Sequence record: PQ850619.1
DNA length: 43,265 nucleotides
Source: Escherichia phage MarieHeimVoegtlin_Bas70
Strand: one strand, 5' to 3'
Shown here: positions 5,136-41,647 of the stretch, piece by piece
Numbering within the stretch: the first letter of the stretch is position 1
How the letters are laid out: each line of letters starts with the position of its first letter
Notes under the pieces: generated by a model
Databases searched by the model: none
What the model saw: only the letters and a program-made list of their open reading frames with translations
What the model was told of the DNA's origin: nothing
Translations under genes and position numbers: made by a program

Positions 5136-5167
5136 TGAATAGTACCCTATTATATTGGGGTGTGCAA
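5136..5167 (-). promoter_or_regulatory. sigma70-like promoter (TTGCAC-N17-TACTAT) with embedded AATAG-N4-CTATT palindrome
   Basis: Read on the minus strand: TTGCAC, 17-nt spacer accccaatataataggg, TACTAT. The 32-bp block is identical to 14240-14271. Confidence 0.55.
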
Positions 5168-5982: not shown

Positions 5983-6064
5983 TTGCCTTGCATGTTGGAA
6001 TAATTTATTCTTGACATGTAAATCCGGGTGGCCCGGGTTCCAACGTCCAGGGGACATACTGACT

Positions 6065-6769
6065 ATGAATCGTTTTTTACGTTATCCGTTCCAGGAAGAA
6101 GCTGGGGCAGAAGATAAAGCTGGTGGCGGTGACGCGCCGAAAATGTTCACCGCTGAAGAAGTTCAGGCGCTGATTGAGAAAGAAGTTGCCGGGCTTAAGG
6201 CTAATCAGGAAGCATTGTTGGCGGAGAAGAAAGAAGCCGCTCGCAAAGCAAAAGAGGCCGAAGAAGAACGGCAGCGCGCGCACCAGGAGGCGTTAAAAGC
6301 CGCTGGTAAGATGGACGAGTTCGAAAAGACGATTCGTAGCCAGTATGACCCGGTGTTAGCCGAGAAAGACGGTCGCATCTCCAGAATGGCAGAGCGTATC
6401 CTCGGCAGCGAACGTAAAGCGGTGCTAGGCTCTTTCGCGGGTGACTTTATTACCCCGGAAGCAGTGGACATTCTTGCGCCGTTCGTTAAGACTGAGTTCG
6501 AAGGCGATGATGTGGTTACTAAGTTTGTTGGTGCAGACGGTAACGTAATCACGACTGACCCGGAACAGTTCCGCAAATACCTGCGCGAACACAAGGCGTT
6601 TTCGCATTTGATTAAAGCAAATGCAGCTTCCGGCGGCGGGGCTTCCGGTAGCAAAGGCGGCGGGGCCGCACCAGCGTTTAAAGACATGAGTGAAGCGGAG
6701 CGTATCGCTCTGTACGAATCGAACCCTGCCGAATTTGAACGGCAACTTAAAGCCCTGAGGAAAAAATAA
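6065..6769 (+). CDS. scaffolding protein (putative)
   Basis: ATG at 6065 with AGGGGA Shine-Dalgarno; track ORF begins upstream at 6011. Charged A/E/K-rich helical sequence. Immediately precedes the capsid gene with an ATGA overlap. Confidence 0.5.
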   Translation: MNRFLRYPFQEEAGAEDKAGGGDAPKMFTAEEVQALIEKEVAGLKANQEALLAEKKEAARKAKEAEEERQRAHQEALKAAGKMDEFEKTIRSQYDPVLAEKDGRISRMAERILGSERKAVLGSFAGDFITPEAVDILAPFVKTEFEGDDVVTKFVGADGNVITTDPEQFRKYLREHKAFSHLIKANAASGGGASGSKGGGAAPAFKDMSEAERIALYESNPAEFERQLKALRKK

Positions 6770-11267: not shown

Positions 11268-12436
11268 ATATGGCTACAACTCCTTTTAAGGGCGCGAATA
11301 CCGCGCAATTCTATGTGGCGGAAACTACCCCTGGCGTAACACCGACTAACCCGGTATGGTCGCCGTTGCGTAACACGGGCGGCGTTCCCGCTGTAACCCG
11401 CGATGCACTGACTTCCAACGAACTGGACGGCAGCCGTGAAACTACATCCATCCGAACCGGTAACAAGCAGGTTAGCGGGGAGTATGCCATCGAACTTAGC
11501 TCTCGTAGCCAGGATGATTTCCTTGCGGGAGCGATGACTTCTACGTGGCAAGCTGGGGTAGAGATTACTGGCGCCGAAATTACGGTCGCCCCAGCAGGTA
11601 AAACATTCACCCGCGCTGCCGGTAGCTTCATTACTGACGGTGTAGAAGTTGGCGACCTTATTGCGTTCACCGACTTAACCGGCGACAACGCAAAACCGTT
11701 TATCGTGACCGCGGTTTCCGCTCTGGTAGTTACGGGCGCAGGTATTCAGCACACGCTGACAGCAGAGACAGTAACCACTGACGCAAAAACTGGCGACAAG
11801 CTGGAAACCGGTAACGCGTGTAAGACGTTCTCCATCCTGACGTGGTTCAAGGGCCAGTGTGGTAACCCGGACGCGTACATGCTGACCAAAGGTGTGGAAA
11901 TCTCTGGCTTTACCGTAGAGCAGGCGGTTAACGCCATGGTCACCGGCAGCTTCCCGTTCATCGGCCTGAGTCAGGAGATTCTTACCGCGCCGCCGTCTGG
12001 CTCTGATTTCTCTCGGGTTACGTTCACCGATGAGCCGTTCTCGTCGGTAGATGTGTCGGTGTTCGATGGCTCCACGCCGTTGCGTTGCGATACTCTCACC
12101 ATCACCAACGACAACGGAGCTTCCGCGCAGTTCGAACTCGGTAACAGTAGCGTGGCGTTCGTCGAACGTGGACGCGCAGCTAACACATTCTCTATCTCTG
12201 GCAAGCTGTACGACATGGCGATGATTCAGAAGTTTATCAACGAGCAGCAGGTAGAGATTAACTCTATTCTGGCAGGGGTAAACGGGGCTATGTCTTTCAG
12301 TTTGAAACGTGCAGAGCTTACGGCGGTTACACCTGAGATTGGTGGGCCTGAGTCAATCACTCAGTCCATTGAAGGCCAGGCTACCGGCAATCAGTACCAG
12401 TCGTCTATCGTAATTCAACGTATCACCTACGCATAA
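11264..12436 (+). CDS. major tail (tube) protein
   Basis: 390 aa T/S/G-rich ORF, last gene before a strong terminator and upstream of chaperone and tape measure genes. Confidence 0.55.
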   Translation: MNMATTPFKGANTAQFYVAETTPGVTPTNPVWSPLRNTGGVPAVTRDALTSNELDGSRETTSIRTGNKQVSGEYAIELSSRSQDDFLAGAMTSTWQAGVEITGAEITVAPAGKTFTRAAGSFITDGVEVGDLIAFTDLTGDNAKPFIVTAVSALVVTGAGIQHTLTAETVTTDAKTGDKLETGNACKTFSILTWFKGQCGNPDAYMLTKGVEISGFTVEQAVNAMVTGSFPFIGLSQEILTAPPSGSDFSRVTFTDEPFSSVDVSVFDGSTPLRCDTLTITNDNGASAQFELGNSSVAFVERGRAANTFSISGKLYDMAMIQKFINEQQVEINSILAGVNGAMSFSLKRAELTAVTPEIGGPESITQSIEGQATGNQYQSSIVIQRITYA

Positions 12437-12440
12437 AACT

Positions 12441-12466
12441 AAGGCCCCTTTCGGGGCCTTTTTCTC
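12441..12466. terminator. bidirectional intrinsic terminator
   Basis: aaggcccc-tttc-ggggcctt hairpin with AAAACT on the 5' side and TTTTTCT on the 3' side. Sits between convergent genes ending at 12436 (+) and 12465 (-). Confidence 0.7.
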
Positions 12467-12695
12467 ACTCATCAATATTACTTCGATACTCCCGTAACTT
12501 CTCCAGACTTTCAATTGCTTCTGCTAAGTCGGTTCCGGTGTCCTTATGCCCGCGAAGACCCATGCACAATAACTTCTTCAATGCGTGCTGTAGTGCGGGG
12601 TCACGGATGTCGAAGGCACGGAGAACATCGTAAACGTCTACGGTCATAGTGCTGCCGTGAGTGTTTGTCATTGTTCGGTTGTATTTTGAAGTCAT
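12465..12695 (-). CDS. hypothetical protein (76 aa), cassette member
   Basis: ATGA overlap with the upstream phosphoesterase gene, so likely co-translated. Last gene before the terminator. Confidence 0.5.
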   Translation of the reverse strand: MTSKYNRTMTNTHGSTMTVDVYDVLRAFDIRDPALQHALKKLLCMGLRGHKDTGTDLAEAIESLEKLREYRSNIDE

Positions 12696-14239: not shown

Positions 14240-14271
14240 TGAATAGTACCCTATTATATTGGGGTGTGCAA
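14240..14271 (-). promoter_or_regulatory. sigma70-like promoter (TTGCAC-N17-TACTAT) with embedded AATAG-N4-CTATT palindrome
   Basis: 32 bp identical to 5136-5167. Positioned about 25 nt upstream of the 13888-14214 start codon on the minus strand. Confidence 0.55.
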
Positions 14272-22313: not shown

Positions 22314-24245
22314 ATGTCAAGCGGATGCGGTGACGTTTTAAGCCTGGCGGATTTACAAACCGCCAAGAAACACCAAATTTTTGAAGCCGAGGTTATCACC
22401 GGTAAAGCTGGCGGTGTAGCTACGGGTGCTGATATCGATTACGCGACAAATCAGGTTACAGGGCAGACTCAGAAGACGCTCCCGGCCGTGTTGCGTGACG
22501 CCGGGTTCAGACCTGCGCCATTCACATTCGAAACAGGTGGGACTTTGGGCGTTAACGACGCTGACCTGGCGGTGTTGTGGCCAGGGCCATCAGGCGACGG
22601 CAACTATTATGCATGGAAAGGTGCCCTGCCAAAAACCATCCCGGCATCTTCAACCCCGGCGTCTACGGGCGGAGTAGGCCAGACCGCATGGGTTGCCGTT
22701 AGTGAAGCTGCATTGCGCCGTGATTTGGCCCTAAGCACTGGCGCAGGGCTAGTCGGTACGTCTTCGGGTCGCACAGTGCAAGGCGAGGTTGACCATTTCA
22801 AAATAGGGTATATGACACCCGATGATTTCGGCGCGGTGGGTGATGGTGTTACCGACGACACCGCGCCTTTGCAACAGGCTATTGACTATTGCTCAAGCAA
22901 CGGTATCGCGTTAAGAATCCCCGCAAAATCTTATGTTTGGAATGGCGGTATTATAACTTCACCCGTAACAATAATCGGTGACAGACGTCCTGATTACAAT
23001 CTTAGCTCCAATTCTATGTCTAACGGGTCTGTTATAATTGGCAATTTAAGATTTTCCGCAAGCCAGGTGATTATTAAGTCACTTGGTGTGCGTAGGCCTA
23101 CAGGCTCCCCCGGAGATTGTCTGGTGTTATCGACCGATAACTATGCTGGTGGGTCTTGTATTGTTCAAGATGTAGTTGCCGCGGGCCTTTCCGGTTCGGA
23201 CACGTACCACAGCGTTCTTGTTGAAGGCTACGATTCCGCGCATGTATCTCAAATAACTGGCGGTTATAATCTTTTTGGCCTCGCGATTAAGTCAAGAAAC
23301 GTTGTTGCCAGAGGCGTAATAACCGTAAGCTGTGATACTGGCGTTATCATTAAATCTGATAGTGAGTTCAGCACGGCAAAAAATGTGGTGCTGGACGGGC
23401 ACATTAATGTCGGTAATGGTGTTTCTAGTCAAGGTGTTTGGATTTACAGCACAACCGCACAACTTGAGCGTATTACCTGCGCAAACTTACAAAGCATCGA
23501 TTCCGCTATACATATGCGGATTAAGTCCGAAAACGTAGCTAATGACGTGCAAATTGTTGGGGCAAATTATTCAGGATCTACTTATGCGGATGTGCTCGTC
23601 GAAGGCACTTCGGCTGGCACGTTGTACAATGTTAGTTTAGATAGTATAACCGCAGTAAATAGCCAGAAATTTATGGCTGCAGGTTTCTGTGAACAACTGA
23701 TGGTAACAGGATTCTATGGGTCCCTGAAACCTGGCGCTCCCGCCGATACTGCGTTTGAGGTTAGCGCCGCCGTAGGGCTTTTTAGCGGGTCAAATATCCA
23801 ACTAGTCCGTCAATACCGCCGTGACCTAATGACAATGAATCTCGGTAACAGTTATCTTAATAATAGATTATCATCTGTTAAGGCGAAAGTAATAGGAAAC
23901 GGCAAACCTAGGCCGGGGTATAAAGAACAGAATCTTAGCGGCGCTGCGGCTACAATGATTGTTGGCGACAGTTTGGGGCCCTCTGGGGTTGTGTCTGTCA
24001 CCGCGTTATCCACCGGCAGTTCATTCAGCAGTATTGCTATTAATGACGACTATGGTCAGCCGGTTAAGCCAGGTTTTCTTCTAATAATCCGAAACGCATC
24101 CACTATCCCGTTCGTTATGAACCATAATCCAGGGTCTGGTGGAATCGCAAATAACGGGGCGGTGGGTAAGACCATTATGGGCGGAGACACTATAATGTAC
24201 GTTTTTGACGGGGCGAATTGGCGTCAAACTCCATCTATAGCTTAA
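22314..24245 (+). CDS. tailspike / tail fiber with pectate-lyase-like beta-helix domain
   Basis: 643 aa. Motif GYMTPDDFGAVGDGVTDDTAPLQQAIDYC is typical of pectate-lyase-fold right-handed beta-helix enzymes. Last structural gene before a bidirectional terminator. Confidence 0.6.
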   Translation: MSSGCGDVLSLADLQTAKKHQIFEAEVITGKAGGVATGADIDYATNQVTGQTQKTLPAVLRDAGFRPAPFTFETGGTLGVNDADLAVLWPGPSGDGNYYAWKGALPKTIPASSTPASTGGVGQTAWVAVSEAALRRDLALSTGAGLVGTSSGRTVQGEVDHFKIGYMTPDDFGAVGDGVTDDTAPLQQAIDYCSSNGIALRIPAKSYVWNGGIITSPVTIIGDRRPDYNLSSNSMSNGSVIIGNLRFSASQVIIKSLGVRRPTGSPGDCLVLSTDNYAGGSCIVQDVVAAGLSGSDTYHSVLVEGYDSAHVSQITGGYNLFGLAIKSRNVVARGVITVSCDTGVIIKSDSEFSTAKNVVLDGHINVGNGVSSQGVWIYSTTAQLERITCANLQSIDSAIHMRIKSENVANDVQIVGANYSGSTYADVLVEGTSAGTLYNVSLDSITAVNSQKFMAAGFCEQLMVTGFYGSLKPGAPADTAFEVSAAVGLFSGSNIQLVRQYRRDLMTMNLGNSYLNNRLSSVKAKVIGNGKPRPGYKEQNLSGAAATMIVGDSLGPSGVVSVTALSTGSSFSSIAINDDYGQPVKPGFLLIIRNASTIPFVMNHNPGSGGIANNGAVGKTIMGGDTIMYVFDGANWRQTPSIA

Positions 24246-24249
24246 AACT

Positions 24250-24275
24250 AAGGCCCCGTTTGGGGCCTTTTCTCT
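24250..24275. terminator. bidirectional intrinsic terminator
   Basis: aggcccc-gttt-ggggcct hairpin with AAAACTA on the 5' side and TTTTCTCT on the 3' side. Sits at the boundary between + structural and - replication genes. Confidence 0.7.
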
Positions 24276-24276
24276 A

Positions 24277-24411
24277 CTCTTCTGATAACTTCTCCAGCAC
24301 AAACGCCAGTTGCGCATTAGCGGCGTCTCTTTGCTGCCGTAGTCGTAGAACCTCTTCTTCCAGTTCCTTGATACGTTTTTGCAATGCTGGAATAGGAGCT
24401 ATGATGTTCAT
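24277..24411 (-). CDS. hypothetical small coiled-coil protein (44 aa)
   Basis: ATGA overlap with the helicase stop. Heptad-like MNIIAPIPALQKRIKELEEEVLRLRQQRDAANAQLAFVLEKLSEE. Below the ORF-track cutoff, hand-translated. Confidence 0.3.
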
Positions 24412-26836: not shown

Positions 26837-27121
26837 CTAACTATAATAGTTCGCTATTAGGTCGTCAACCTGTTTGAACGAACCAACGACAAAAACATTT
26901 GCACCACGTTTACGCATCCGCTCGTGCTCTCGTATCTGGTGCGGGTCTGGCTTCGTGTTTTCGTCTTTCTTAACCTCGACGAACCAGACGATGCCGCCAG
27001 GGAGAATTACCAGCAGGTCGGGAGCGCCGGAACGCCCCTCGTAGGAAAGTTTACGAACGAGGCCCCCAAGGGCCTCAAATCGCTCTTTTGCGTATTTCTG
27101 GATGCGGCCCTCTTTAGTCAT
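26837..27121 (-). CDS. VRR-NUC domain nuclease (PD-(D/E)xK)
   Basis: Start taken at internal ATG 27121 (track ORF extends to 27301 from a TTG). Motifs GAPDLLV and VWFVEVKK fit the VRR-NUC D...E.K core. Confidence 0.55.
   Translation of the reverse strand: MTKEGRIQKYAKERFEALGGLVRKLSYEGRSGAPDLLVILPGGIVWFVEVKKDENTKPDPHQIREHERMRKRGANVFVVGSFKQVDDLIANYYS
26840..26868 (-). promoter_or_regulatory. sigma70-like promoter (TTGACG-N17-TATAGT) with AATAGTTCGCTATT palindrome in spacer
   Basis: Minus-strand reading gives TTGACG, 17-nt spacer, TATAGT. Same architecture as the promoters at 30401-30429 and 32950-32978. Confidence 0.55.
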
Positions 27122-29714: not shown

Positions 29715-30341
29715 TTAGCGGCGACGACGTTCACGGCGCGGTGCTTCATCTTCTTCGTCATCTTCCAGGTCATTGACGCTCGCGGCGACTTTAGAACCGC
29801 CGAACGCTTTGCCTTCGCCAACGTATTTAATCGCCAGCAGGTTAACGCCGAGGACTTTGTATTTCTGGCTGAACCAGATTTCAACGCTTACGTTAGCTAA
29901 GCATCCGCTGTAAACCTGTTCACCTTCAATCTGTTCGCCGTCTACGTTGAAGTCCTGCTCTACCTGAGTCTCACCTTTTTTAGAGGTTACAATCAGCGGC
30001 TGTTTCTGTGCCTTCGCTTTGAAGTAGAAGCCTTCCGGGAAGTCTTCAAACGGATTGTCGCGCTCGGCAATGTCTTTAATCGCGCATTTATCCATGTGCT
30101 TACCTTCACCGTAGTTGGACTTCATCCATTTCTCGGCAGCGGCTGCGCCTAACGCTTCTTCAACTACAGCGTAAACGGTGTCGTAGAGTGCATCGATTTG
30201 AGCATGGTCAGACGGCAGGATGATAGTCGCGCTGTACTGGCCTTTAGTGATTGAGCCATCATCGTTTTCACGGTCTTTTTCACGTTCAAATACGTTAACC
30301 CAAGCAGTGTTTACTTTACGCAGATTCAGTTTAATACCCAT
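29715..30341 (-). CDS. putative ssDNA-binding protein (DUF2815-like)
   Basis: 208 aa with highly charged C-terminal tail DLEDDEEDEAPRRERRRR. Adjacent to the polymerase and a PD-(D/E)xK nuclease, the usual neighbourhood for such proteins. Followed by its own terminator. Confidence 0.45.
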   Translation of the reverse strand: MGIKLNLRKVNTAWVNVFEREKDRENDDGSITKGQYSATIILPSDHAQIDALYDTVYAVVEEALGAAAAEKWMKSNYGEGKHMDKCAIKDIAERDNPFEDFPEGFYFKAKAQKQPLIVTSKKGETQVEQDFNVDGEQIEGEQVYSGCLANVSVEIWFSQKYKVLGVNLLAIKYVGEGKAFGGSKVAASVNDLEDDEEDEAPRRERRRR

Positions 30342-30400: not shown

Positions 30401-30429
30401 ACTATAATAGCTAACTATTCAGGTGTCAA
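30401..30429 (-). promoter_or_regulatory. sigma70-like promoter (TTGACA-N17-TATAGT) with AATAGCTAACTATT palindrome in spacer
   Basis: Minus-strand reading gives TTGACA, 17-nt spacer, TATAGT. Embedded in the 3' end of the 30415-30618 ORF. Confidence 0.55.
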
Positions 30430-30618
30430 ATAAAATTTCGCAATACGGACTATGTTCTCGAAATCATTCATATCAACGGGTTCGAATTCATCCTCCACAT
30501 GGTTGTATCGCACCATCGTGCCGTTCAGGAACGTAAACGATTCCGAATGGATATAACCGCCCCAGCGCCATATCATCACAAAATCTTTATCTGTGGGCAT
30601 TTCATTTACTTGAATCAT
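30415..30618 (-). CDS. hypothetical protein (67 aa)
   Basis: ATG with GGAGGA Shine-Dalgarno. Overlaps the stop of the upstream nuclease gene. Confidence 0.45.
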   Translation of the reverse strand: MIQVNEMPTDKDFVMIWRWGGYIHSESFTFLNGTMVRYNHVEDEFEPVDMNDFENIVRIAKFYLTPE

Positions 30619-31856
30619 TCTAAATCCTCCTCTGTTACCCTATTCCACTCAGGACGTTTGTCGTCTGCCGTTGCAACACATGGTGCGCCTGGCTTACGGG
30701 TAATGAAGTCTTTCAGTTCTTCTTCCGGTATGACTTTAACCGCTTCGGTTGGCGTCATGAGCACTTGCTTCATTAGCGCTATGCCATACTTGCCAGCCAC
30801 TTTCTCTGCGTCTTTCCACGCACGATTGCCCGGGCGGCCCTCAACCAGCTTGTACCCCGGCACTTTCTTACCGGAATGCAACGCGGTGGCCATCGCTTTC
30901 TCAACCTTGTCGATGTGCTGGCGCAACAACGGCAACTTCTCATATTCAGCTACGAGTTGCTCCGGCGTAAGTTCCAGCGCAAAGTCGTCCTCCAGTTCTT
31001 CCGCCAGTACAGAGTTAACGGTTTTTGTACGCGCGGCACACTGTTCAGAGAACCGACACCACTGACAACCATCTACAGACGGCTTGAAATCAGATGCTTT
31101 CAGGTTCTTCTTACCGCGGAAATACGCATCAAGCGCCAACAGTGCACGTTTCTTGGCAAACTTAGCGAACAGTTCAAGGCCTTCAACCGAGATGTCCCAC
31201 TCCGACGCGCCGCCAGTGTACGGCTGGAAGATTACCAGACGAACAACTGTTATGTTATAACGTCTCTTGAGTCGGCGATAAACACCGAGAGCGTAAAGCA
31301 TAAGCTGTTTGTTTTCTTTCGCTTCGACACGATGCCGCCCGGTTTTCAGGTCGCCGATAATGAGCATGTGCTCGTCGGTGTTTGCCAGTTCCTGTACAGC
31401 AACGAGGTCAGCGGTTCCGAACGTCTCAACGCCTTCATACCCCGGATGCAATACCTCAGTAAGATTGACACGCATTTCCAGCTTGGCGTAAGTCGCTACG
31501 TCTATAATCGCTTTGCAGTAGTCGGTGTACTTGCGCACCTGCTCAATCATGTCCGCCGTAATCAGTACCGCGCCTTTCATCGGGCTGATTAGCGCCTTAA
31601 TCTGACCTTTACCCTCATCCAGCACGTAAGCACCGACTTCACGTTCTAACGGCAGCGCAGTGCCACGGATATAGGCGTTTAGGTGCACTTCTGCGATTGT
31701 ATGGCATGCGGTCCCCGTAACGGCAGCTTTACCTGACGTGTTAGGAATATCTTTTTCACAGGCCAGTGATGCACTGCACGTCAGCCACTTCTTAGCACCT
31801 GACGGCGACAATAAGGCGTGCACATCATTATTGCCACCGCGTTCTTTTAGAATCAT
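30615..31856 (-). CDS. PD-(D/E)xK nuclease with Cys cluster (Cas4/RecB-like, DUF2800-like)
   Basis: Start taken at ATG 31856 with GGGAGAA Shine-Dalgarno (track begins at GTG 31871). Motif GDLKTG...QLMLYALG. Cysteines in WLTCSASLAC and CQWCRFSEQC suggest an Fe-S cluster. Confidence 0.6.
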   Translation of the reverse strand: MILKERGGNNDVHALLSPSGAKKWLTCSASLACEKDIPNTSGKAAVTGTACHTIAEVHLNAYIRGTALPLEREVGAYVLDEGKGQIKALISPMKGAVLITADMIEQVRKYTDYCKAIIDVATYAKLEMRVNLTEVLHPGYEGVETFGTADLVAVQELANTDEHMLIIGDLKTGRHRVEAKENKQLMLYALGVYRRLKRRYNITVVRLVIFQPYTGGASEWDISVEGLELFAKFAKKRALLALDAYFRGKKNLKASDFKPSVDGCQWCRFSEQCAARTKTVNSVLAEELEDDFALELTPEQLVAEYEKLPLLRQHIDKVEKAMATALHSGKKVPGYKLVEGRPGNRAWKDAEKVAGKYGIALMKQVLMTPTEAVKVIPEEELKDFITRKPGAPCVATADDKRPEWNRVTEEDLE

Positions 31857-32168: not shown

Positions 32169-32669
32169 TTATTCTTCTTCGAAATACTTGTTCTTGATTG
32201 CTGTCAAGCGTTCCAGGTATTCAGCCAGGTCTTCGTCTTTAATCGCTGCAATCTTCATTTTCTTACCTGTGAACTCTTCCAGCAGTTCATCAGAATCATC
32301 GCACGCGGCATCGCTCGGACCTTCGTTAATTGCATCGTCGATAGCCTGAATCTGGTCGCGCAGAGACTTATAGTCTACTTCTTCTTTCTCTTCTTCCGGC
32401 TCTGGCGTCGTTTCCTCTACTTTAGCTTTACGCGGCTTGCGTTTTGGCTTCTCTTCTTCTGCCGGTTTAGTGTCAACGATGTCTTCACCTTCTGCCGGGA
32501 TTTCTTTTGTTGCTTCTTCAGCGCACTCAGCTACCGCTTCTTTGGTGTACGATACAGTCTCTACTTCCAGCGGCGCGGCAACCTGAACAACTTGTTTCGC
32601 ACTGTTCGCGGCAATCAGTTCATGTGCAACTACGAAACGTTCCAGCAATACTAAGAATTTCTCTAACAT
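32169..32669 (-). CDS. highly acidic hypothetical protein
   Basis: 166 aa, very rich in E/D (for example PEPEEEKEEVDY, DDSDELLEEF). In the replication operon. Confidence 0.5.
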   Translation of the reverse strand: MLEKFLVLLERFVVAHELIAANSAKQVVQVAAPLEVETVSYTKEAVAECAEEATKEIPAEGEDIVDTKPAEEEKPKRKPRKAKVEETTPEPEEEKEEVDYKSLRDQIQAIDDAINEGPSDAACDDSDELLEEFTGKKMKIAAIKDEDLAEYLERLTAIKNKYFEEE

Positions 32670-32693
32670 TTGTTTCTCTCCTGTTTGTGTAAG

Positions 32694-32921
32694 TTACTCA
32701 CCGTCGCCTTCAGTAAGGCTATCGTCTATTAGTTCAAATTTACCGTTTGAGTGTTGAATAGCTTCTTGCCCGCAATGGTCACAGACAACAAGTTTATCGA
32801 ACCCATCAAACTCATCCCCTACTACGCAAGAAAGTACAAATTTATGTTTTGTGCACACTTCTTGCGGAGCGCCGAAAATTGCTCGAAAACCTTTAGCTAT
32901 GGCCCCAGTGATTGTGTTCAT
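32694..32921 (-). CDS. small zinc-ribbon-like protein
   Basis: 75 aa with four Cys/His spaced as C...C...CDHC. GAGAGGGG Shine-Dalgarno. First gene downstream of the leftward promoter at 32950-32978. Confidence 0.45.
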   Translation of the reverse strand: MNTITGAIAKGFRAIFGAPQEVCTKHKFVLSCVVGDEFDGFDKLVVCDHCGQEAIQHSNGKFELIDDSLTEGDGE

Positions 32922-32949
32922 ATCTGCCCCTCTCGTTTGGTATGGGCTA

Positions 32950-32978
32950 ACTATAATAGCGAACTATTCACATGTCAA
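32950..32978 (-). promoter_or_regulatory. sigma70-like promoter (TTGACA-N17-TATAGT) with AATAGCGAACTATT palindrome
   Basis: Minus-strand reading gives TTGACA, 17-nt spacer, TATAGT. Divergent from the HTH regulator gene at 33043. Confidence 0.6.
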
Positions 32979-35995: not shown

Positions 35996-36174
35996 TTCAC
36001 GTTCTCCTTAATCCATGCTTCGACTTTATTACGGTCAAATGTTCCCGGTAAACGGCGGCCCATAACCTTAATACAGCAGTCAGGGAATTTGCCGCTGCGC
36101 AACCAGTTATTAATCGTCTGACGTGTCACCCCGATACGTTCAGCTACTTCATTCTGCGTCATATAATGCGACAT
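35992..36174 (-). CDS. small HTH DNA-binding protein (excisionase/AlpA-like fold)
   Basis: Start taken at ATG 36174 with AGGAG Shine-Dalgarno (track ORF extends to 36288). HTH in MTQNEVAERIGVTRQTINNWL. 60 aa. Confidence 0.55.
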   Translation of the reverse strand: MSHYMTQNEVAERIGVTRQTINNWLRSGKFPDCCIKVMGRRLPGTFDRNKVEAWIKENVK

Positions 36175-36205
36175 TTTTATATCTCCTGTTTGTTTGGTGA
36201 AACTG

Positions 36206-36592: not shown

Positions 36593-36621
36593 TTGCACAC
36601 CCCAACATAATAGGTTACTAT
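36593..36621 (+). promoter_or_regulatory. sigma70-like promoter (TTGCAC-N17-TACTAT) with AATAG-N4-CTATT palindrome
   Basis: Reverse-orientation copy of the 5136/14240 promoter block with two mismatches. About 35 nt upstream of the gene at 36656. Confidence 0.55.
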
Positions 36622-36655
36622 TCACTTATCGAAACGAGACATAAGGAATTTAGAA

Positions 36656-36874
36656 ATGAACAAAGCGACCGCAAGCGTAGTTTCCGCAATCAAACAAGTT
36701 TACGGCATCGATATTTCAGAGCGCGTAATTATCGGGAACAAGCGCAACTTCTTTACGTTCGACACCGACGGAATGGATGAAAATGATTTTGTTAACGTAC
36801 AACGTTTCGCTAACGGTAAAGGACTTCGTAACGAGCCAGCGGGTTACAAGAAATTTGCTATCTACTTTAAATAA
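36656..36874 (+). CDS. hypothetical early protein (72 aa)
   Basis: ATG with AAGGAA Shine-Dalgarno. First gene of the rightward small-gene cluster. Confidence 0.5.
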   Translation: MNKATASVVSAIKQVYGIDISERVIIGNKRNFFTFDTDGMDENDFVNVQRFANGKGLRNEPAGYKKFAIYFK

Positions 36875-37533: not shown

Positions 37534-37673
37534 GAGAAGCATTCGAACGATGGGCCGTAGTCGAGGGTCTGCCGGTTAACAAGGGTTCGAAGAAAGAGTA
37601 CCTGAACGTTAAGACGCGTCTTGCGTGGCGGGCGTGGAAAGCTGGTGCGCAAGCTGTGATGAATAAGGGGTGA
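37530..37673 (+). CDS. hypothetical small protein (47 aa)
   Basis: ATGA overlap with the upstream stop. Ends 3 nt before the next ATG. Hand-translated. Confidence 0.3.
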   Translation: MREAFERWAVVEGLPVNKGSKKEYLNVKTRLAWRAWKAGAQAVMNKG

Positions 37674-37676
37674 TTT

Positions 37677-37871
37677 ATGGGTAAGTGGATTAAGTGTAGT
37701 GAGCGGATGCCGGGTGACTTTGAAGATGTCCTGGTTTCGGATGGGGGTAACGTTGAGGTGATGTGGTGGGACTGCGACGGTTTCTGGGATTGTTGGGCGC
37801 CGCGCAACTCAAACATCGATATAGACGATGTGACTCACTGGATGCCGTTACCTGAGCCGCCAGAAGTGTGA
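37677..37871 (+). CDS. hypothetical protein, DUF551-like (W/C-rich, C-terminal WMPLPEPP)
   Basis: 64 aa. The C-terminal W.PLPEPP motif is characteristic of a widespread small phage protein family. Confidence 0.45.
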   Translation: MGKWIKCSERMPGDFEDVLVSDGGNVEVMWWDCDGFWDCWAPRNSNIDIDDVTHWMPLPEPPEV

Positions 37872-38014
37872 TGTTATATTGTAACAATAGTTTGGGATTT
37901 TACTGAGTGACTTACGCTGCTACACAGCAGCGTACAACTTTAGATTAGTGTCGTCAAAAAGCGACACTTTCACCAAACGCAACAATCGAAGTGACTATTG
38001 CAGGAGACGCAACA

Positions 38015-38182
38015 ATGATTACTAAAGAACAAGCGCAATCATTATATGATGCGATTATCGCAGTTGCAGAGGCACACGCGGACTACGCAACAGCGGATTA
38101 CTATAGTGTTGACGACGCTGGGGGTAGGAAACGCGAGGCCGAGACAAATTTATGGGATGTGTTGCAGAGGATGACCTCGTAA
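38015..38182 (+). CDS. hypothetical protein (55 aa)
   Basis: ATG with AGGAG Shine-Dalgarno. Track ORF begins at GTG 37991. Confidence 0.4.
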   Translation: MITKEQAQSLYDAIIAVAEAHADYATADYYSVDDAGGRKREAETNLWDVLQRMTS

Positions 38183-38222
38183 CCTGTCCCGTGGTGACAA
38201 TACAAACACCAATAAAATTTAC

Positions 38223-38251
38223 TTGCGCACTTATATAGAATAGGATACTAT
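38223..38251 (+). promoter_or_regulatory. sigma70-like promoter (TTGCGC-N17-TACTAT) with AATAG-N4-CTATT palindrome
   Basis: TTGCGC, 17-nt spacer, TACTAT. Palindrome AATAGGATACTATT at 38239-38252. Confidence 0.5.
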
Positions 38252-38262
38252 TCATTTACACG

Positions 38263-38286
38263 AACGAGAGGAGAGACAGAAGATGG
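38263..38286 (+). repeat. 24-bp perfect direct repeat spanning Shine-Dalgarno and start codon (copy 1)
   Basis: AACGAGAGGAGAGACAGAAGATGG is identical to 38694-38717. Confidence 0.8.
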
Positions 38287-38432
38287 TTACTTTGATGGTT
38301 ATGGAATTCAAAAACAGCGCAGCAACTTATCGCGAGATGACTATGGCGCAGGCGTACCACCTGGCCTCAAACGGCAACTTCTACAAGGCGCAAATCATCA
38401 ACGAGTTCGGGGTAATTGACTATGAATTTTAG
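38283..38432 (+). CDS. hypothetical small protein (49 aa)
   Basis: ATG inside repeat copy 1 with GAGAGGAGAGA Shine-Dalgarno. Hand-translated as MVTLMVMEFKNSAATYREMTMAQAYHLASNGNFYKAQIINEFGVIDYEF. Confidence 0.35.
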   Translation: MVTLMVMEFKNSAATYREMTMAQAYHLASNGNFYKAQIINEFGVIDYEF

Positions 38433-38694
38433 CAGCTACACCGTGAATGTTGATTTTGAGGGGCTGGAGTTGCCCCTCCCTAACAACTACCGGTATATAA
38501 CTCGTGACCGTTTCGGTTTTATTCAGGGGTGGAGGAACAAACCGACAGACACTGAGTTTGGTATGACAGGTGGGGAAGAGCTGCCGATTACTTTCGGGCA
38601 TCAGAGTAGTAACGAAGAGCTTAAAACTGTGATTCGTAAGTATCGCCGCCGTGGTAATACCGGGCTTATAGCGATAACCGGCGCTGTTGAGTAA
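38422..38694 (+). CDS. hypothetical protein (90 aa)
   Basis: ATG at 38422 (track ORF starts at TTG 38416). Overlaps the end of the preceding small ORF. Confidence 0.4.
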   Translation: MNFSSYTVNVDFEGLELPLPNNYRYITRDRFGFIQGWRNKPTDTEFGMTGGEELPITFGHQSSNEELKTVIRKYRRRGNTGLIAITGAVE

Positions 38695-38717
38695 ACGAGA
38701 GGAGAGACAGAAGATGG
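38694..38717 (+). repeat. 24-bp perfect direct repeat spanning Shine-Dalgarno and start codon (copy 2)
   Basis: Identical to 38263-38286. Supplies the ribosome-binding site and ATG of the 38714 gene. Confidence 0.8.
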
Positions 38718-39229
38718 GTAACAAAAACGAAGTATTCGAGTACCTGATTGGCCAACTACGGCAGCAGCTACCAGTCATAGATGTAATGGGCGAAATCAAA
38801 CTGTGGAGCATAGACCGTAGTATTGCTGGTCGCGGTAACTATACCGACGAGGAAAACGCCATAATCGACGCTTACATCGGCCTGGAGCACAACCCGCACA
38901 AGCAACAGTGCGAAGACCTGGCGCATGAGGTGCAGTCACTTAAAAACCAGTTACGTGATGCTTCGTCGCAGATTAAGGATTTGCATCTGGCGCTGGTTCG
39001 GGCTACGGGTGACGCGGAAGCGTACAAACTTATCCGCAAACAGGAGCAATCTGGTTGCTGTAAAGAAGATACTCAGGAATGCCGCCATAACTGGCGATTC
39101 GTTAACGGAAAGGCTCCCGCCGTATGTATTAATTGCGGCGTGACCAAAACTGAGGAGTGTGGACACGTGTGGGAATATTATTACCCAAACGGCCGGCGTT
39201 GTACCAAATGCGGGGCGATAAACTTATGA
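38714..39229 (+). CDS. hypothetical protein with C-terminal zinc-ribbon-like Cys cluster
   Basis: 171 aa from ATG 38714. C-terminal CINCG...CTKCG. Confidence 0.5.
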   Translation: MGNKNEVFEYLIGQLRQQLPVIDVMGEIKLWSIDRSIAGRGNYTDEENAIIDAYIGLEHNPHKQQCEDLAHEVQSLKNQLRDASSQIKDLHLALVRATGDAEAYKLIRKQEQSGCCKEDTQECRHNWRFVNGKAPAVCINCGVTKTEECGHVWEYYYPNGRRCTKCGAINL

Positions 39230-39429
39230 CCAGCATCTTATTTATCTGGGTATTATCTGCAGGCCAGATGCAACTAGCGGCATCGGAAACGTTTTACTCG
39301 ATGGAGGCGTGCCAGTCAGCGGCACGCGCCGCTGAGAACGCGCACTTTCTGTTTCAGGGTGACAAGCCCAACGATTCAGAGGTACGCGCTATCTGCTCAC
39401 CTAAGCGACTTGGAAAACAGGAGAAATAA
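39226..39429 (+). CDS. hypothetical small protein with hydrophobic N-terminus
   Basis: ATGA overlap with the upstream stop. N-terminus MTSILFIWVLSAGQMQLAASE looks like a signal peptide or membrane anchor. Confidence 0.4.
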   Translation: MTSILFIWVLSAGQMQLAASETFYSMEACQSAARAAENAHFLFQGDKPNDSEVRAICSPKRLGKQEK

Positions 39430-39430
39430 C

Positions 39431-39634
39431 ATGGTACAGAGATATTCTAAGTATGGGTCCGACAACCATTTCATTGACCGCCACGGGAAGTGGGTTAAGT
39501 TTGAGGACTACCAGAATCTTGACCTAAAGCTGTTGGAAGTTGAAGCTGAGTTACAGAAATACAAAGACCAGTACCCTGATTACGTCGAGTGCGCGAACTG
39601 TGGGTCAGTTACACATGTGGAAGGGGTGGAGTGA
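39431..39634 (+). CDS. hypothetical protein (67 aa), tandem paralog A
   Basis: ATG with AGGAG Shine-Dalgarno. Shares a WV.FEDY...L...L pattern with the next gene. Confidence 0.45.
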   Translation: MVQRYSKYGSDNHFIDRHGKWVKFEDYQNLDLKLLEVEAELQKYKDQYPDYVECANCGSVTHVEGVE

Positions 39635-39813
39635 TGGTGCATAGATACGAAAACGACCACGGCGATATGTTTCAGGCCGCGGAAGGGCGCTGGGTCCTAT
39701 ACGAAGACTACGCGGAGCTGGCGCGTAAACTGCGCGAGCTTGCTAAGCAGGTAGTAAACAGTCCGTGCGACTGGAAGACGGATGAATTAGCGCGCGAGAT
39801 TCTGGACCTATGA
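39634..39813 (+). CDS. hypothetical protein (59 aa), tandem paralog B
   Basis: ATG overlapping the upstream TGA. Pattern WVLYEDYAELARKLRELAK parallels the upstream protein. Confidence 0.45.
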   Translation: MVHRYENDHGDMFQAAEGRWVLYEDYAELARKLRELAKQVVNSPCDWKTDELAREILDL

Positions 39814-40103
39814 GCCTTGCAACTGACATCCTGAAACGGAGCGGCCTTGCGCCGCTGTCGCCGAGAGCGAACACACGAATATACAAGCGCCGCCGTAATG
39901 CGCTGTACCCTGAGATTCAGGCCAGACGCAAAGCAGTCCGCGCCTGCGGATTCCAGAACGGGAAGGCTGTGAATCTCGGTGAGTTTAAAACAAAGGAACG
40001 TGCGGCTATCGCTAATCGGTTATTTAATTACTGGAAATCGCTGGGTTATGAAGATATTCCGACGAAACCACAGAGACGACAATACATCTGGCGTCATAAA
40101 TAA
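39810..40103 (+). CDS. hypothetical basic protein (97 aa)
   Basis: ATGA overlap with the upstream gene. R/K-rich. Confidence 0.45.
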   Translation: MSLATDILKRSGLAPLSPRANTRIYKRRRNALYPEIQARRKAVRACGFQNGKAVNLGEFKTKERAAIANRLFNYWKSLGYEDIPTKPQRRQYIWRHK

Positions 40104-40487: not shown

Positions 40488-40752
40488 GTTATTCTGGTTC
40501 TGCGGTATGCTGGCAATCGGAGGCACATCGCTGTTTAATGTGTATCATCCCAGCGTTGACGACGGGCTATTTGGCCGGGTGCTCTATATCCTGACTGCTA
40601 TTGTCTGCGCCGCAGGATGTATCCACCTGTTACAGGGCAGCATGTCTCCGACGCTGCCTGAGACATTAATCACATTAGTTGCGCTGCGCCAGATTCGTCA
40701 GGCGTGGCTGTCATACGGAGGACATAAGCGTGTCTCGAAATATTTCAGATAA
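40480..40752 (+). CDS. small membrane protein (second holin-like or antiholin candidate)
   Basis: ATG at 40480 with AGGAGG Shine-Dalgarno (track ORF starts further upstream at 40300). Two hydrophobic segments. Overlaps the holin stop and the endolysin start. Confidence 0.4.
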   Translation: MNELFWFCGMLAIGGTSLFNVYHPSVDDGLFGRVLYILTAIVCAAGCIHLLQGSMSPTLPETLITLVALRQIRQAWLSYGGHKRVSKYFR

Positions 40753-41336: not shown

Positions 41337-41365
41337 TTGACTATTACCTACGACCCTATTATATT
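41337..41365 (+). promoter_or_regulatory. sigma70-like promoter (TTGACT-N17-TATATT)
   Basis: TTGACT at 41337-41342, 17-nt spacer, TATATT at 41360-41365. About 35 nt upstream of the gene at 41399. Confidence 0.5.
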
Positions 41366-41398
41366 TACTCCATCGACAACGAGAACGGAGTAGAGAAG

Positions 41399-41647
41399 AT
41401 GAGTAACGTACAGACAATCGCAATAACCGAGGAACTTGAAGCCAAATGTATCGCATGGACTATGGGTAATGACCAGGTTGCTATGCGTAAATTTCCAATG
41501 AAAATCACAGACATCGAAGCATTCAAAGATGCACAACTGATGGCACGTATTGCCGTTGGCAACCTGAGCAACAATATCCCGGCGGACGCGTTCTGGGCTG
41601 CGGCGATGCAGACACTTAAAGCAGCTTATGCAGGAGAGAAGAAATGA
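41399..41647 (+). CDS. hypothetical protein (82 aa)
   Basis: ATG with GGAG Shine-Dalgarno, downstream of the promoter. Confidence 0.45.
   Translation: MSNVQTIAITEELEAKCIAWTMGNDQVAMRKFPMKITDIEAFKDAQLMARIAVGNLSNNIPADAFWAAAMQTLKAAYAGEKK

Follow-up and report, generated by a model that had tools for sequence, protein, structure and literature searches.

A short translation-initiation leader that probably doubles as a recombination joint in the Kagunavirus-type coliphage MarieHeimVoegtlin_Bas70

In T4-type phages, promoter-early stem-loop elements (PeSLs), which are cassettes composed of a promoter, a stem-loop and a Shine-Dalgarno sequence, flank ORFans (Arbiol et al. 2010, PMC2839356; PMC4122927). 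PeSLs bound the insertions and deletions (indels) that separate phi1 from RB49 and form mini-circles (PMC2839356); they are ~100 bp long and number ~50 per genome, and each of them includes a strong sigma-70 promoter as well as a stem-loop terminator. The boundary sequences of lambdoid phages (Susskind and Botstein model; Clark et al. 2001, as summarized in PMC3029335) are short conserved sequences located at module junctions, and the mycobacteriophages Island3 and Brujita differ by an indel bounded by a ~50-bp repeat (PMC3029335). Cluster K mycobacteriophages carry the 13-bp Start-Associated Sequences (SAS), which lie 3-7 bp from a start codon and number 10-19 per genome (Pope et al. 2011, PMC3203893). 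Morons (Juhala et al. 2000, as summarized in PMC3029335) are extra genes that carry their own promoter and terminator. Here we analyze a 24-bp perfect direct repeat in the genome of Escherichia phage MarieHeimVoegtlin_Bas70 (PQ850619.1; the whole stretch of 43,265 nucleotides is referred to as the window), the two copies of which precede a pair of small genes, A and B, and the gene that follows them, C. Phage mosaic joints might form at short conserved sequences, or illegitimate recombination might be random with selection acting afterwards; this is an old question, and the A-B unit offers a clean natural example with which to address it.

The phage is, as judged from its closest matches, a Kagunavirus-type coliphage. 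The region matches 272 phage records, the best of which are Escherichia phages of the genus Kagunavirus (Guernseyvirinae), e.g. DUEC01 and Bas75/76, with 91-95% identity in pieces and mosaically fragmented alignments. Small hypothetical genes on the plus strand surround the repeat; this block is bordered by the replication genes, which are transcribed divergently, and by the holin/endolysin genes. Its sequence, AACGAGAGGAGAGACAGAAGATGG, has two exact matches in the window, both on the plus strand, at 38263-38286 (copy 1) and 38694-38717 (copy 2), and in both an AGGAG Shine-Dalgarno sequence lies 9 nt upstream of an ATG. In copy 1, the promoter-proximal leader of gene A, these are located at 38269-38273 and 38283; in copy 2, the internal leader of gene C, at 38700-38704 and 38714. 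The initial annotation had described a 24-bp perfect repeat supplying the ribosome-binding site and ATG of two genes, which is exact: open reading frames (ORFs) of 49 aa and 171 aa open at 38283 and 38714. Gene A (38283-38432, plus strand; DUF7170 / phrog_4653) is the first gene of the cassette, and gene B (38422-38694, plus strand, 90 aa; phrog_1972) overlaps its end by 11 nt and has a TAA stop codon whose last base is also the first base of copy 2. Gene C (38714-39229, plus strand; phrog_6094) has two C-terminal CxxC pairs. Counterparts of these ORFs are annotated as genes in relatives. A repeat finder stretches the pair to 27 nt, of which 26 are identical (family D9), and no further copies are present in the window at up to 3 mismatches. 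We interpret the repeat as a conserved translation-initiation leader that probably doubles as a recombination joint for the gain, loss and exchange of cassettes, a case of ordinary but unusually clean phage gene shuffling at a short regulatory repeat.

We examined 35 related loci, taken from 26 IMG/VR contigs retrieved by exact pattern (L021, which is unrelated, was left out) and 14 GenBank phages. The 24-mer appears to be the standard leader behind a promoter found throughout the genus. A conserved block of 66 nt at 38197-38262 on the plus strand, immediately upstream of copy 1, contains a -35 element TTGCGC (38223-38228), a 17-nt spacer and a -10 element TACTAT (38246-38251), with the palindrome AATAGGATACTATT at 38239-38252, and the first base of copy 1 lies 11 nt past the -10 hexamer. 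The block occurs exactly once per record in 116 phage records, all of them Kagunavirus-like, and a query with the leader finds 136 places in 101 records. The initial annotation missed that copy 1 is a promoter-proximal leader and that the repeat is genus-wide, with 1-3 copies per genome. The promoter was assigned because of its conservation across genomes and within a repeat family and not from the consensus scan, which did not flag 38223-38251 (7 of 12 consensus positions matched); its activity and its transcription start are predictions, and given that start copy 1 would be essentially the whole 5' untranslated region (UTR) of gene A. Across genomes the leader core GAGAGGAGAG(A/G)C(A/G)GAA(G/T)ATG is well conserved at both positions, its Shine-Dalgarno-to-ATG spacer included. 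The three bases at the 5' end are well conserved beside the promoter and variable in copy 2 (AAC, AGC, AGT, GGC); from the Shine-Dalgarno sequence through the ATG, conservation holds at both copy positions. This pattern suggests that the 5' end of the leader may matter in the promoter context only. The leader is rich in purines, and structure prediction leaves most of it unpaired in both contexts, with a mean unpaired probability of 0.68-0.84 (0.52-0.85 for the Shine-Dalgarno sequence). The scans found no terminator-like site at either copy and no consensus promoter or terminator adjoining copy 2, and on the plus strand of 38283-38717 no promoter or terminator was found save a weak terminator-like match at 38569 in gene B.

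The DNA that follows this promoter and leader is highly variable. The first ORFs behind them are of at least 11 unrelated kinds among the 35 loci, namely gene A, MDTNGAW, MKDYSEV, MGWYGSW, MIPAATW, MFYYKD, MYKYLTV, MKAVTKD, MNLIKA/MFNAVAR, MFLECKS and MFNSNEH. Breakpoints were mapped by a BLAST comparison of window positions 37600-39900 with all loci. Homology starts pile up at 38197-38209 in 32 loci, homology ends at 38285-38296 in 17 loci, and a further 12 high-scoring segment pairs (HSPs) end at 38716-38720. This clustering of starts and ends indicates that the promoter-plus-leader island (38197-38285) is conserved amid variable DNA, and that mosaic breakpoints lie at both copies of the repeat.

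The full A-B segment is rare, being found in only 21 phage records, and in all 18 of the sampled A-B genomes a copy of the leader directly follows the stop codon of gene B. The initial annotation would have been contradicted by relatives that have the same gene content and lack the repeats; copy 2 is present in every sampled A-B relative. The length of the A-B-leader unit is 431 nt in 13 genomes, 426-430 nt in three and 481 nt in one, where gene A is longer, and the copies that follow B differ from copy 1 of the same 18 genomes at 0-4 positions or by a 2-nt deletion. The genes located 3' of this unit are C-type, MGWYGSW/MGGYGSW, MYKYLTV, MFLECKS or MKDYSEV, and four of these (MGWYGSW, MFLECKS, MYKYLTV and MKDYSEV) occur in both contexts, directly after the promoter and leader in some genomes and after A-B-leader in others. 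The paired loci, with the A-B-less member given first, are L004 versus L016, L011 and L031; L024 versus L012; L007, L009 and L027 versus L014 and L015; and L002 and L006 versus L029. Their identity is 79-95% over the first 120 nt of the downstream gene and 81-90% upstream. Since the same four genes are found in both contexts, what separates these genomes is exactly one repeat-bounded unit, and this holds in several downstream contexts. The presence/absence unit has the same defined 23-nt regulatory element as its bound in at least five downstream contexts. The suggestion in the initial annotation that the repeats act as recombination substrates is borne out to the extent that relatives differ by exactly the inter-repeat unit and that breakpoints lie at the ends of both copies. 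It had also proposed comparing relatives for deletion or duplication between the repeats: presence and absence of the unit are seen, and no tandem duplication of the 431-bp unit was seen in any locus examined.

Further observations concern the history of the unit. A-B-positive and A-B-negative genomes interleave in clusterings based on the holin and neighboring genes, the smallest holin distance between the two classes being 0.8%. Their interleaving is consistent with repeated gain, loss or exchange, with a weight that is limited by mosaicism and by the enrichment of the sample. There is no consistent signal of concerted evolution of the two copies, a variant being shared by both in some genomes (Bas71) and not in most. 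The last codons of the MFLECKS gene before C read AACGGGGAGGAG(C/A)CAGAAGATG, a degenerate third copy of the leader running into the ATG of C, in L012, L017, L024 and L033, and in phage TPH05A the order is promoter-leader-A-B-leader-MFLECKS-leader-like-C. The leader located directly before C in the window would then be the expected product of a leader-by-leader-like deletion of a small gene. Among the BASEL Kagunaviruses Bas71-76, the cassette is present in Bas71, Bas72 and Bas75, and at least one other appears to lack it, so that cultured phage pairs with and apparently without the cassette are at hand.

We propose that the promoter and leader form a slot which receives different small accessory genes in different phages. 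In the lineage of the window A-B would have filled this slot, the displaced gene keeping its own full leader, and the outcome would be the order promoter-leader-A-B-leader-C with a 431-bp unit between direct repeats. A-B would be expressed from the resident promoter, and each copy would load ribosomes for its own gene with a presumed translation strength; because each copy drives its own gene, insertion of a cassette would leave translation of the downstream gene undisturbed. Crossovers at the shared leader would have brought A-B next to one or another downstream gene, and would account for gain and loss of the unit. Such crossovers may be homologous or proceed by single-strand annealing, plausibly with a Gp2.5-like annealing protein and an exonuclease or with host functions; we infer both the enzymology and the direction of each event, gain or loss. 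Candidate enzymes are encoded in the window: a Gp2.5-like single-stranded DNA-binding/annealing protein (29715-30341, minus strand; phrog_112, E = 4e-41), which is 100% identical to an annotated Bas75 protein over the aligned 190 aa, an exonuclease that is a candidate partner for it (30615-31856, minus strand; phrog_69, E = 2e-120), and also a resolvase-like endonuclease. Together these could catalyze annealing at short homology.

Compared with the systems described above, the Kagunavirus repeat seems to work like a PeSL without being one. Each is a regulatory repeat whose 3' end supplies the Shine-Dalgarno sequence and start codon for the next gene. In both systems, hyperplastic regions hold small, functionally uncharacterized genes flanked by the repeats, indels between relatives are repeat-bounded, and an inter-repeat recombination has been proposed that leaves the moved genes expressible. 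Unlike PeSLs, the Kagunavirus repeat is 23-24 bp long, consists of the leader only and has 1-3 copies per genome. There is also no sigma-70 promoter in each copy, as that of copy 1 lies outside the repeat and copy 2 is preceded by the coding sequence of B, and no stem-loop in each copy, the leader being predicted to be mostly unpaired with no terminator-like site. The repeat shares with the lambdoid boundary sequences a short conserved sequence at a gene boundary, unrelated flanking genes and coincident mosaic breakpoints, and with the case of Island3 and Brujita an indel bounded by direct repeats, for which either a deletion within one molecule or an exchange between molecules by general recombination would account. 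It differs from the boundary sequences in being a defined element, the leader of a conserved promoter, and in bounding a unit that is joined to at least five downstream genes. SAS is similarly an asymmetric AGGAG repeat just 5' of the ATG of unrelated non-structural genes and conserved across related phages; however, the Kagunavirus leader extends over 20-23 nt, has two exact copies in the window and places AGGAG 9 nt from the ATG, and an association with cassette indels is undescribed for SAS. A SAS-like multi-copy motif was rejected as an explanation, since a search of the window at up to 7 mismatches returned the two copies and no third. Like morons, A and B are extra genes that are present in one genome and gone from a close relative, where the elements on either side are adjacent; A-B was nonetheless rejected as a moron, as no promoter or terminator of its own flanks the cassette.

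One alternative is that selection keeps the two copies identical, either for matched translation rates of A and C or as a binding site for an RNA-binding factor of phage or host, along the lines proposed for SAS, recombination being incidental. The conservation of the leader core with its Shine-Dalgarno-to-ATG spacer at both positions, the predicted unpaired state of the leader, and the fixed distance of 11-12 nt that separates AACGAGAG-type leaders from the -10 elements of several other promoters (leaders at 32937 on the minus strand, 36633 and 41378) are all in keeping with a function under selection. However, an identical pair of 23-mers is found only in the window and in TPH05A; in the remaining 16 A-B genomes the copies show differences at 1-4 positions or a 2-nt deletion. 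Pairwise identity averages 0.90 for the leader, no more than the 0.90 of gene A. The leader also precedes at least 11 unrelated genes and is thus not specific to A and C, and there are 2 exact and 2 loose copies per genome against at least 10 for SAS. Function alone, moreover, leaves the repeat-exact bounds of the presence/absence unit unexplained, and we consider this alternative unlikely. Nor do these observations specifically support the idea in the initial annotation that identical initiation regions coordinate translation, as the leader is generic and its copies differ in most relatives.

A second alternative arises from the homologs of A-B in T1-like phages (Drexlerviridae). More than 200 Drexlerviridae records (Webervirus, Warwickvirus, Changchunvirus) contain DNA that is 68-84% identical to the 3' part of A and the 5' part of B, and the C-terminus of gene B and the position of its stop codon are conserved with the T1-like homologs. 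In ExeQuayColi a homologous A-B pair has a ~75-nt cassette as direct repeats on both sides, and in KpS2 the same ~75-nt cassettes flank A and an unrelated second gene. This T1-type cassette, whose start coincides with the stop codon of the preceding gene, flanks small genes, the A-B homologs among them, and consists of GCACTTTTTGTTAAAAC, a spacer that is often a GC-rich palindrome, a -10-like TATTAT/TATATT and a leader part C(A/C)CATCGACAACGA..GAGGA..ATG, which can also be written CCATCGACAACGA..GAGGA..ATG. It is located at 752-825 and 1258-1329 in locus L037, at 760-831 and 1490-1561 in L038, at 753-825 and 1177-1250 in L039, and at 7 sites in L040. Seven such cassettes are found in Webervirus mtp18 with GCACTTTTTGTTAAAAC as the marker; ATCGACAACGA was tried as a marker in the same genome and rejected, as it recovered one true site only. 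With their full promoter cassettes, often carrying a GC-rich inverted repeat in the spacer, the T1-like flanks of A-B are nearer to PeSLs than the Kagunavirus repeat is. The leader part resembles the window leaders at 41366-41401 and 36623-36658, Kagunavirus and T1-like leaders have ACGA..GAGGA..ATG in common, and the T1-type leader part appears to be homologous to the Kagunavirus leaders. The fact that A-B is bounded by the regulatory repeat of each resident phage in two families supports the view that such repeats are places where cassettes are joined.

Copy 2 might accordingly be the relic of a full second promoter-leader cassette located after B, the promoter having since been deleted. The full ~75-nt cassettes on both sides of A-B (ExeQuayColi) or A-B' (KpS2), starting from the upstream stop codon, the homologous position of the B stop in both phage groups and the motif shared by their leaders would all fit such an origin. 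Against it, copy 2 matches the Kagunavirus leader of copy 1 in full (23 of 23 positions) and fails to match the T1-type leader, and a trace of the T1-type promoter is found in none of the 18 A-B genomes; a scan and inspection of the DNA 5' of copy 2 for a decayed promoter found nothing convincingly similar to the promoter block in the 3' end of gene B, which is conserved as coding sequence. We regard this origin as improbable, to about the same degree as maintenance by selection, and as it concerns origin only it would be compatible with later use of the leader as a joint. That the two ribosome-binding sites match by chance or convergence has next to no probability and is already refuted: both are purine-rich Shine-Dalgarno regions of reduced complexity, but the 24-mer has no match in 100 dinucleotide-preserving shuffles (~3e-6 exact 24-nt repeats are expected analytically in 43 kb), the identity spans positions outside the Shine-Dalgarno sequence and 6 nt 5' of it, and the same sequence occupies the homologous position in dozens of relatives. 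Shared N-termini of genes A and C were also rejected as the source of the match, as the proteins part right after Met-Gly / Met-Val.

Several points weigh against the leader as a recombination joint. The evidence is a comparison of diverged genomes, in which recombination and selection are not fully separable; the closest A-B-positive and A-B-negative pairs are 5-20% diverged in their flanks, with no very recent event visible, and the sample of loci is enriched for multi-copy genomes. The promoter fits the sigma-70 consensus poorly (7/12) and went unflagged by the scan. The minimal homology for RecA- and Red-dependent recombination is ~30 bp (PMC2327257), and the repeat, at 23-24 bp, is below this minimum, so that events may be rare. 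A single ancient insertion could have been followed by replacement of the downstream genes, with the leader being merely one crossover site.

The slot behind the promoter and leader could be a recombinase-free gene-capture platform, in which accessory cassettes, each ending in the resident leader, are stacked behind one promoter, with the gene order of TPH05A as an example; this is a tentative and rather doubtful extension. On the same speculative footing, circles excised leader-by-leader might move among Kagunavirus genomes and even between Guernseyvirinae and Drexlerviridae. With such a platform, the mini-circle mechanism of T4 PeSLs would reach siphoviruses as well, and a repeat of no more than 5'-UTR length. 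Since the slot takes many inserts while downstream expression is kept, it is a natural site for payload engineering in Kagunavirus therapeutic phages.

The genes found in the slot offer few functional clues. Pfam and PHROGs return only families of unknown function for A, B and C (DUF7170, phrog_4653, phrog_1972 and phrog_6094), and a match of gene B to AcrIIA4 was dismissed as noise (E = 0.079, 13.7 bits against a cut-off of 27). From their position in a hypervariable slot alone, the cassette genes and the variable first genes of ~40 aa are candidates for host takeover or anti-defence. Many of the variable first genes are ~36-58 aa long and have the loose motif x(T/S)LGEL/VE(E/K)(L/M)...(Y/H)E......(V/I)C(D/N/S)GD. 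Genes with this motif come first after the promoter and leader in L002, L004, L005, L007, L009, L019 and L025-L027 and follow copy 2 in L011, L014-L016, L029 and L031; the window has no member. These tiny proteins look like a fast-evolving family that fills the hypervariable slot. In L017 the promoter is separated from a complete canonical leader, that of MFLECKS, by an unrelated 69-aa ORF (reverse complement of 5987-6196). The leader of this ORF is its own, of the AAGGAATTTGAAGATG type and with a different tail, and the hydrophobic sequence of the protein makes it look like a two-helix membrane protein. The direct repeat that flanks the ORF is no longer than ~AACG, which suggests an insertion at the 5' edge of the canonical leader.

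Nearly all members of the genus have gene C (M[GS]NKNEVFEY...), and its usual 5' neighbor is a small variable gene and not the leader. It is internally mosaic: 38714-38770 (57 nt) is kept in nearly all relatives, 23 HSPs end at 38770, the segment from 38771 to ~38888 is variable, and conserved blocks follow from ~38889 on. Its homologs range from 120 to 232 aa, and the CxxC pairs suggest a zinc ribbon. On the other side of the slot, just 5' of the promoter block, a 55-aa gene (38015-38182) has weak matches to phrog_653 and DUF7438 and is found among the sampled relatives in only two, DUEC01 and Bas75. Homology to most genomes halts at 38016-38034 and restarts at 38197; there is therefore a mosaic joint at the left edge of the promoter island.

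The palindrome in the promoter block belongs to a family of promoter-like repeats, AATAG-N4-CTATT, with at least seven members in the window (5138-5151, 14242-14255, 26845-26858, 30406-30419, 32955-32968, 36609-36622 and 38239-38252), located between or overlapping the -35 and -10 elements. The promoters take the form TTGACA-17-TATAGT on the minus strand and TTGCAC/TTGCGC-17-TACTAT on the plus strand, and those at 5136-5167 and 14240-14271 are identical across 32 nt. The palindrome could be the operator of a phage regulator, such as the helix-turn-helix proteins encoded nearby. Seven PHIRE promoters were reported for the Kagunavirus Golestan (PMC7203180), a count that agrees with the family in the window, and this count was all that a search of the Kagunavirus, Jerseyvirinae, Guernseyvirinae and Drexlerviridae literature yielded, with no published description of the repeat found.

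Related initiation regions are present elsewhere in the window. The initial annotation had pointed to a looser version of the repeat before the gene at 41399; this version, AACGAGAACGGAGTAGAGAAGATG at 41378-41401, is real but distant, with only the ends of the motif shared: AACGAGA at the 5' end and AGAAGATG at the 3' end are common to both sequences, which are otherwise separated by one indel and several substitutions. It starts 12 nt past a second, sigma-70-like promoter (TTGACT-17-TATATT, 41337-41365), with which it forms a plus-strand element at 41337-41401, and it is closer to the T1-like leaders than the 24-mer is, its CTCCATCGACAACGA matching the T1-type leaders. On the minus strand, a promoter of the form TTGACA-17-TATAGT with an AATAG-N4-CTATT palindrome is followed 12 nt on by the related leader AACGAGAGGGGCAGATATG (32919-32968). 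The sequence ACAAACAGGAGA.A.AAAATG occurs twice on the minus strand before unrelated genes (32667-32688 and 36172-36193). Another form, (G/A)AGGA(A)TTTAGAA(A)TG, occurs at 30616-30629 (minus strand) before a 67-aa gene and at 36644-36658 (plus strand) before the 72-aa gene at 36656; it is similar to GAGGATTTAGCAATG, the T1-type leader.

Two minor observations were made outside the repeat region. DUEC01 has an annotated HNH homing endonuclease (L011, 5651-6166) between the second holin and the endolysin, and no ORF of comparable size lies at the corresponding position of the window (~40490-40680). The window also contains a 43-nt pair at 12431-12473 and 24240-24282 that is 81% identical and terminator-like, with a GC stem and a T-tract (GCATAAAACTAAGGCCCCTTTCGGGGCCTTTTT).

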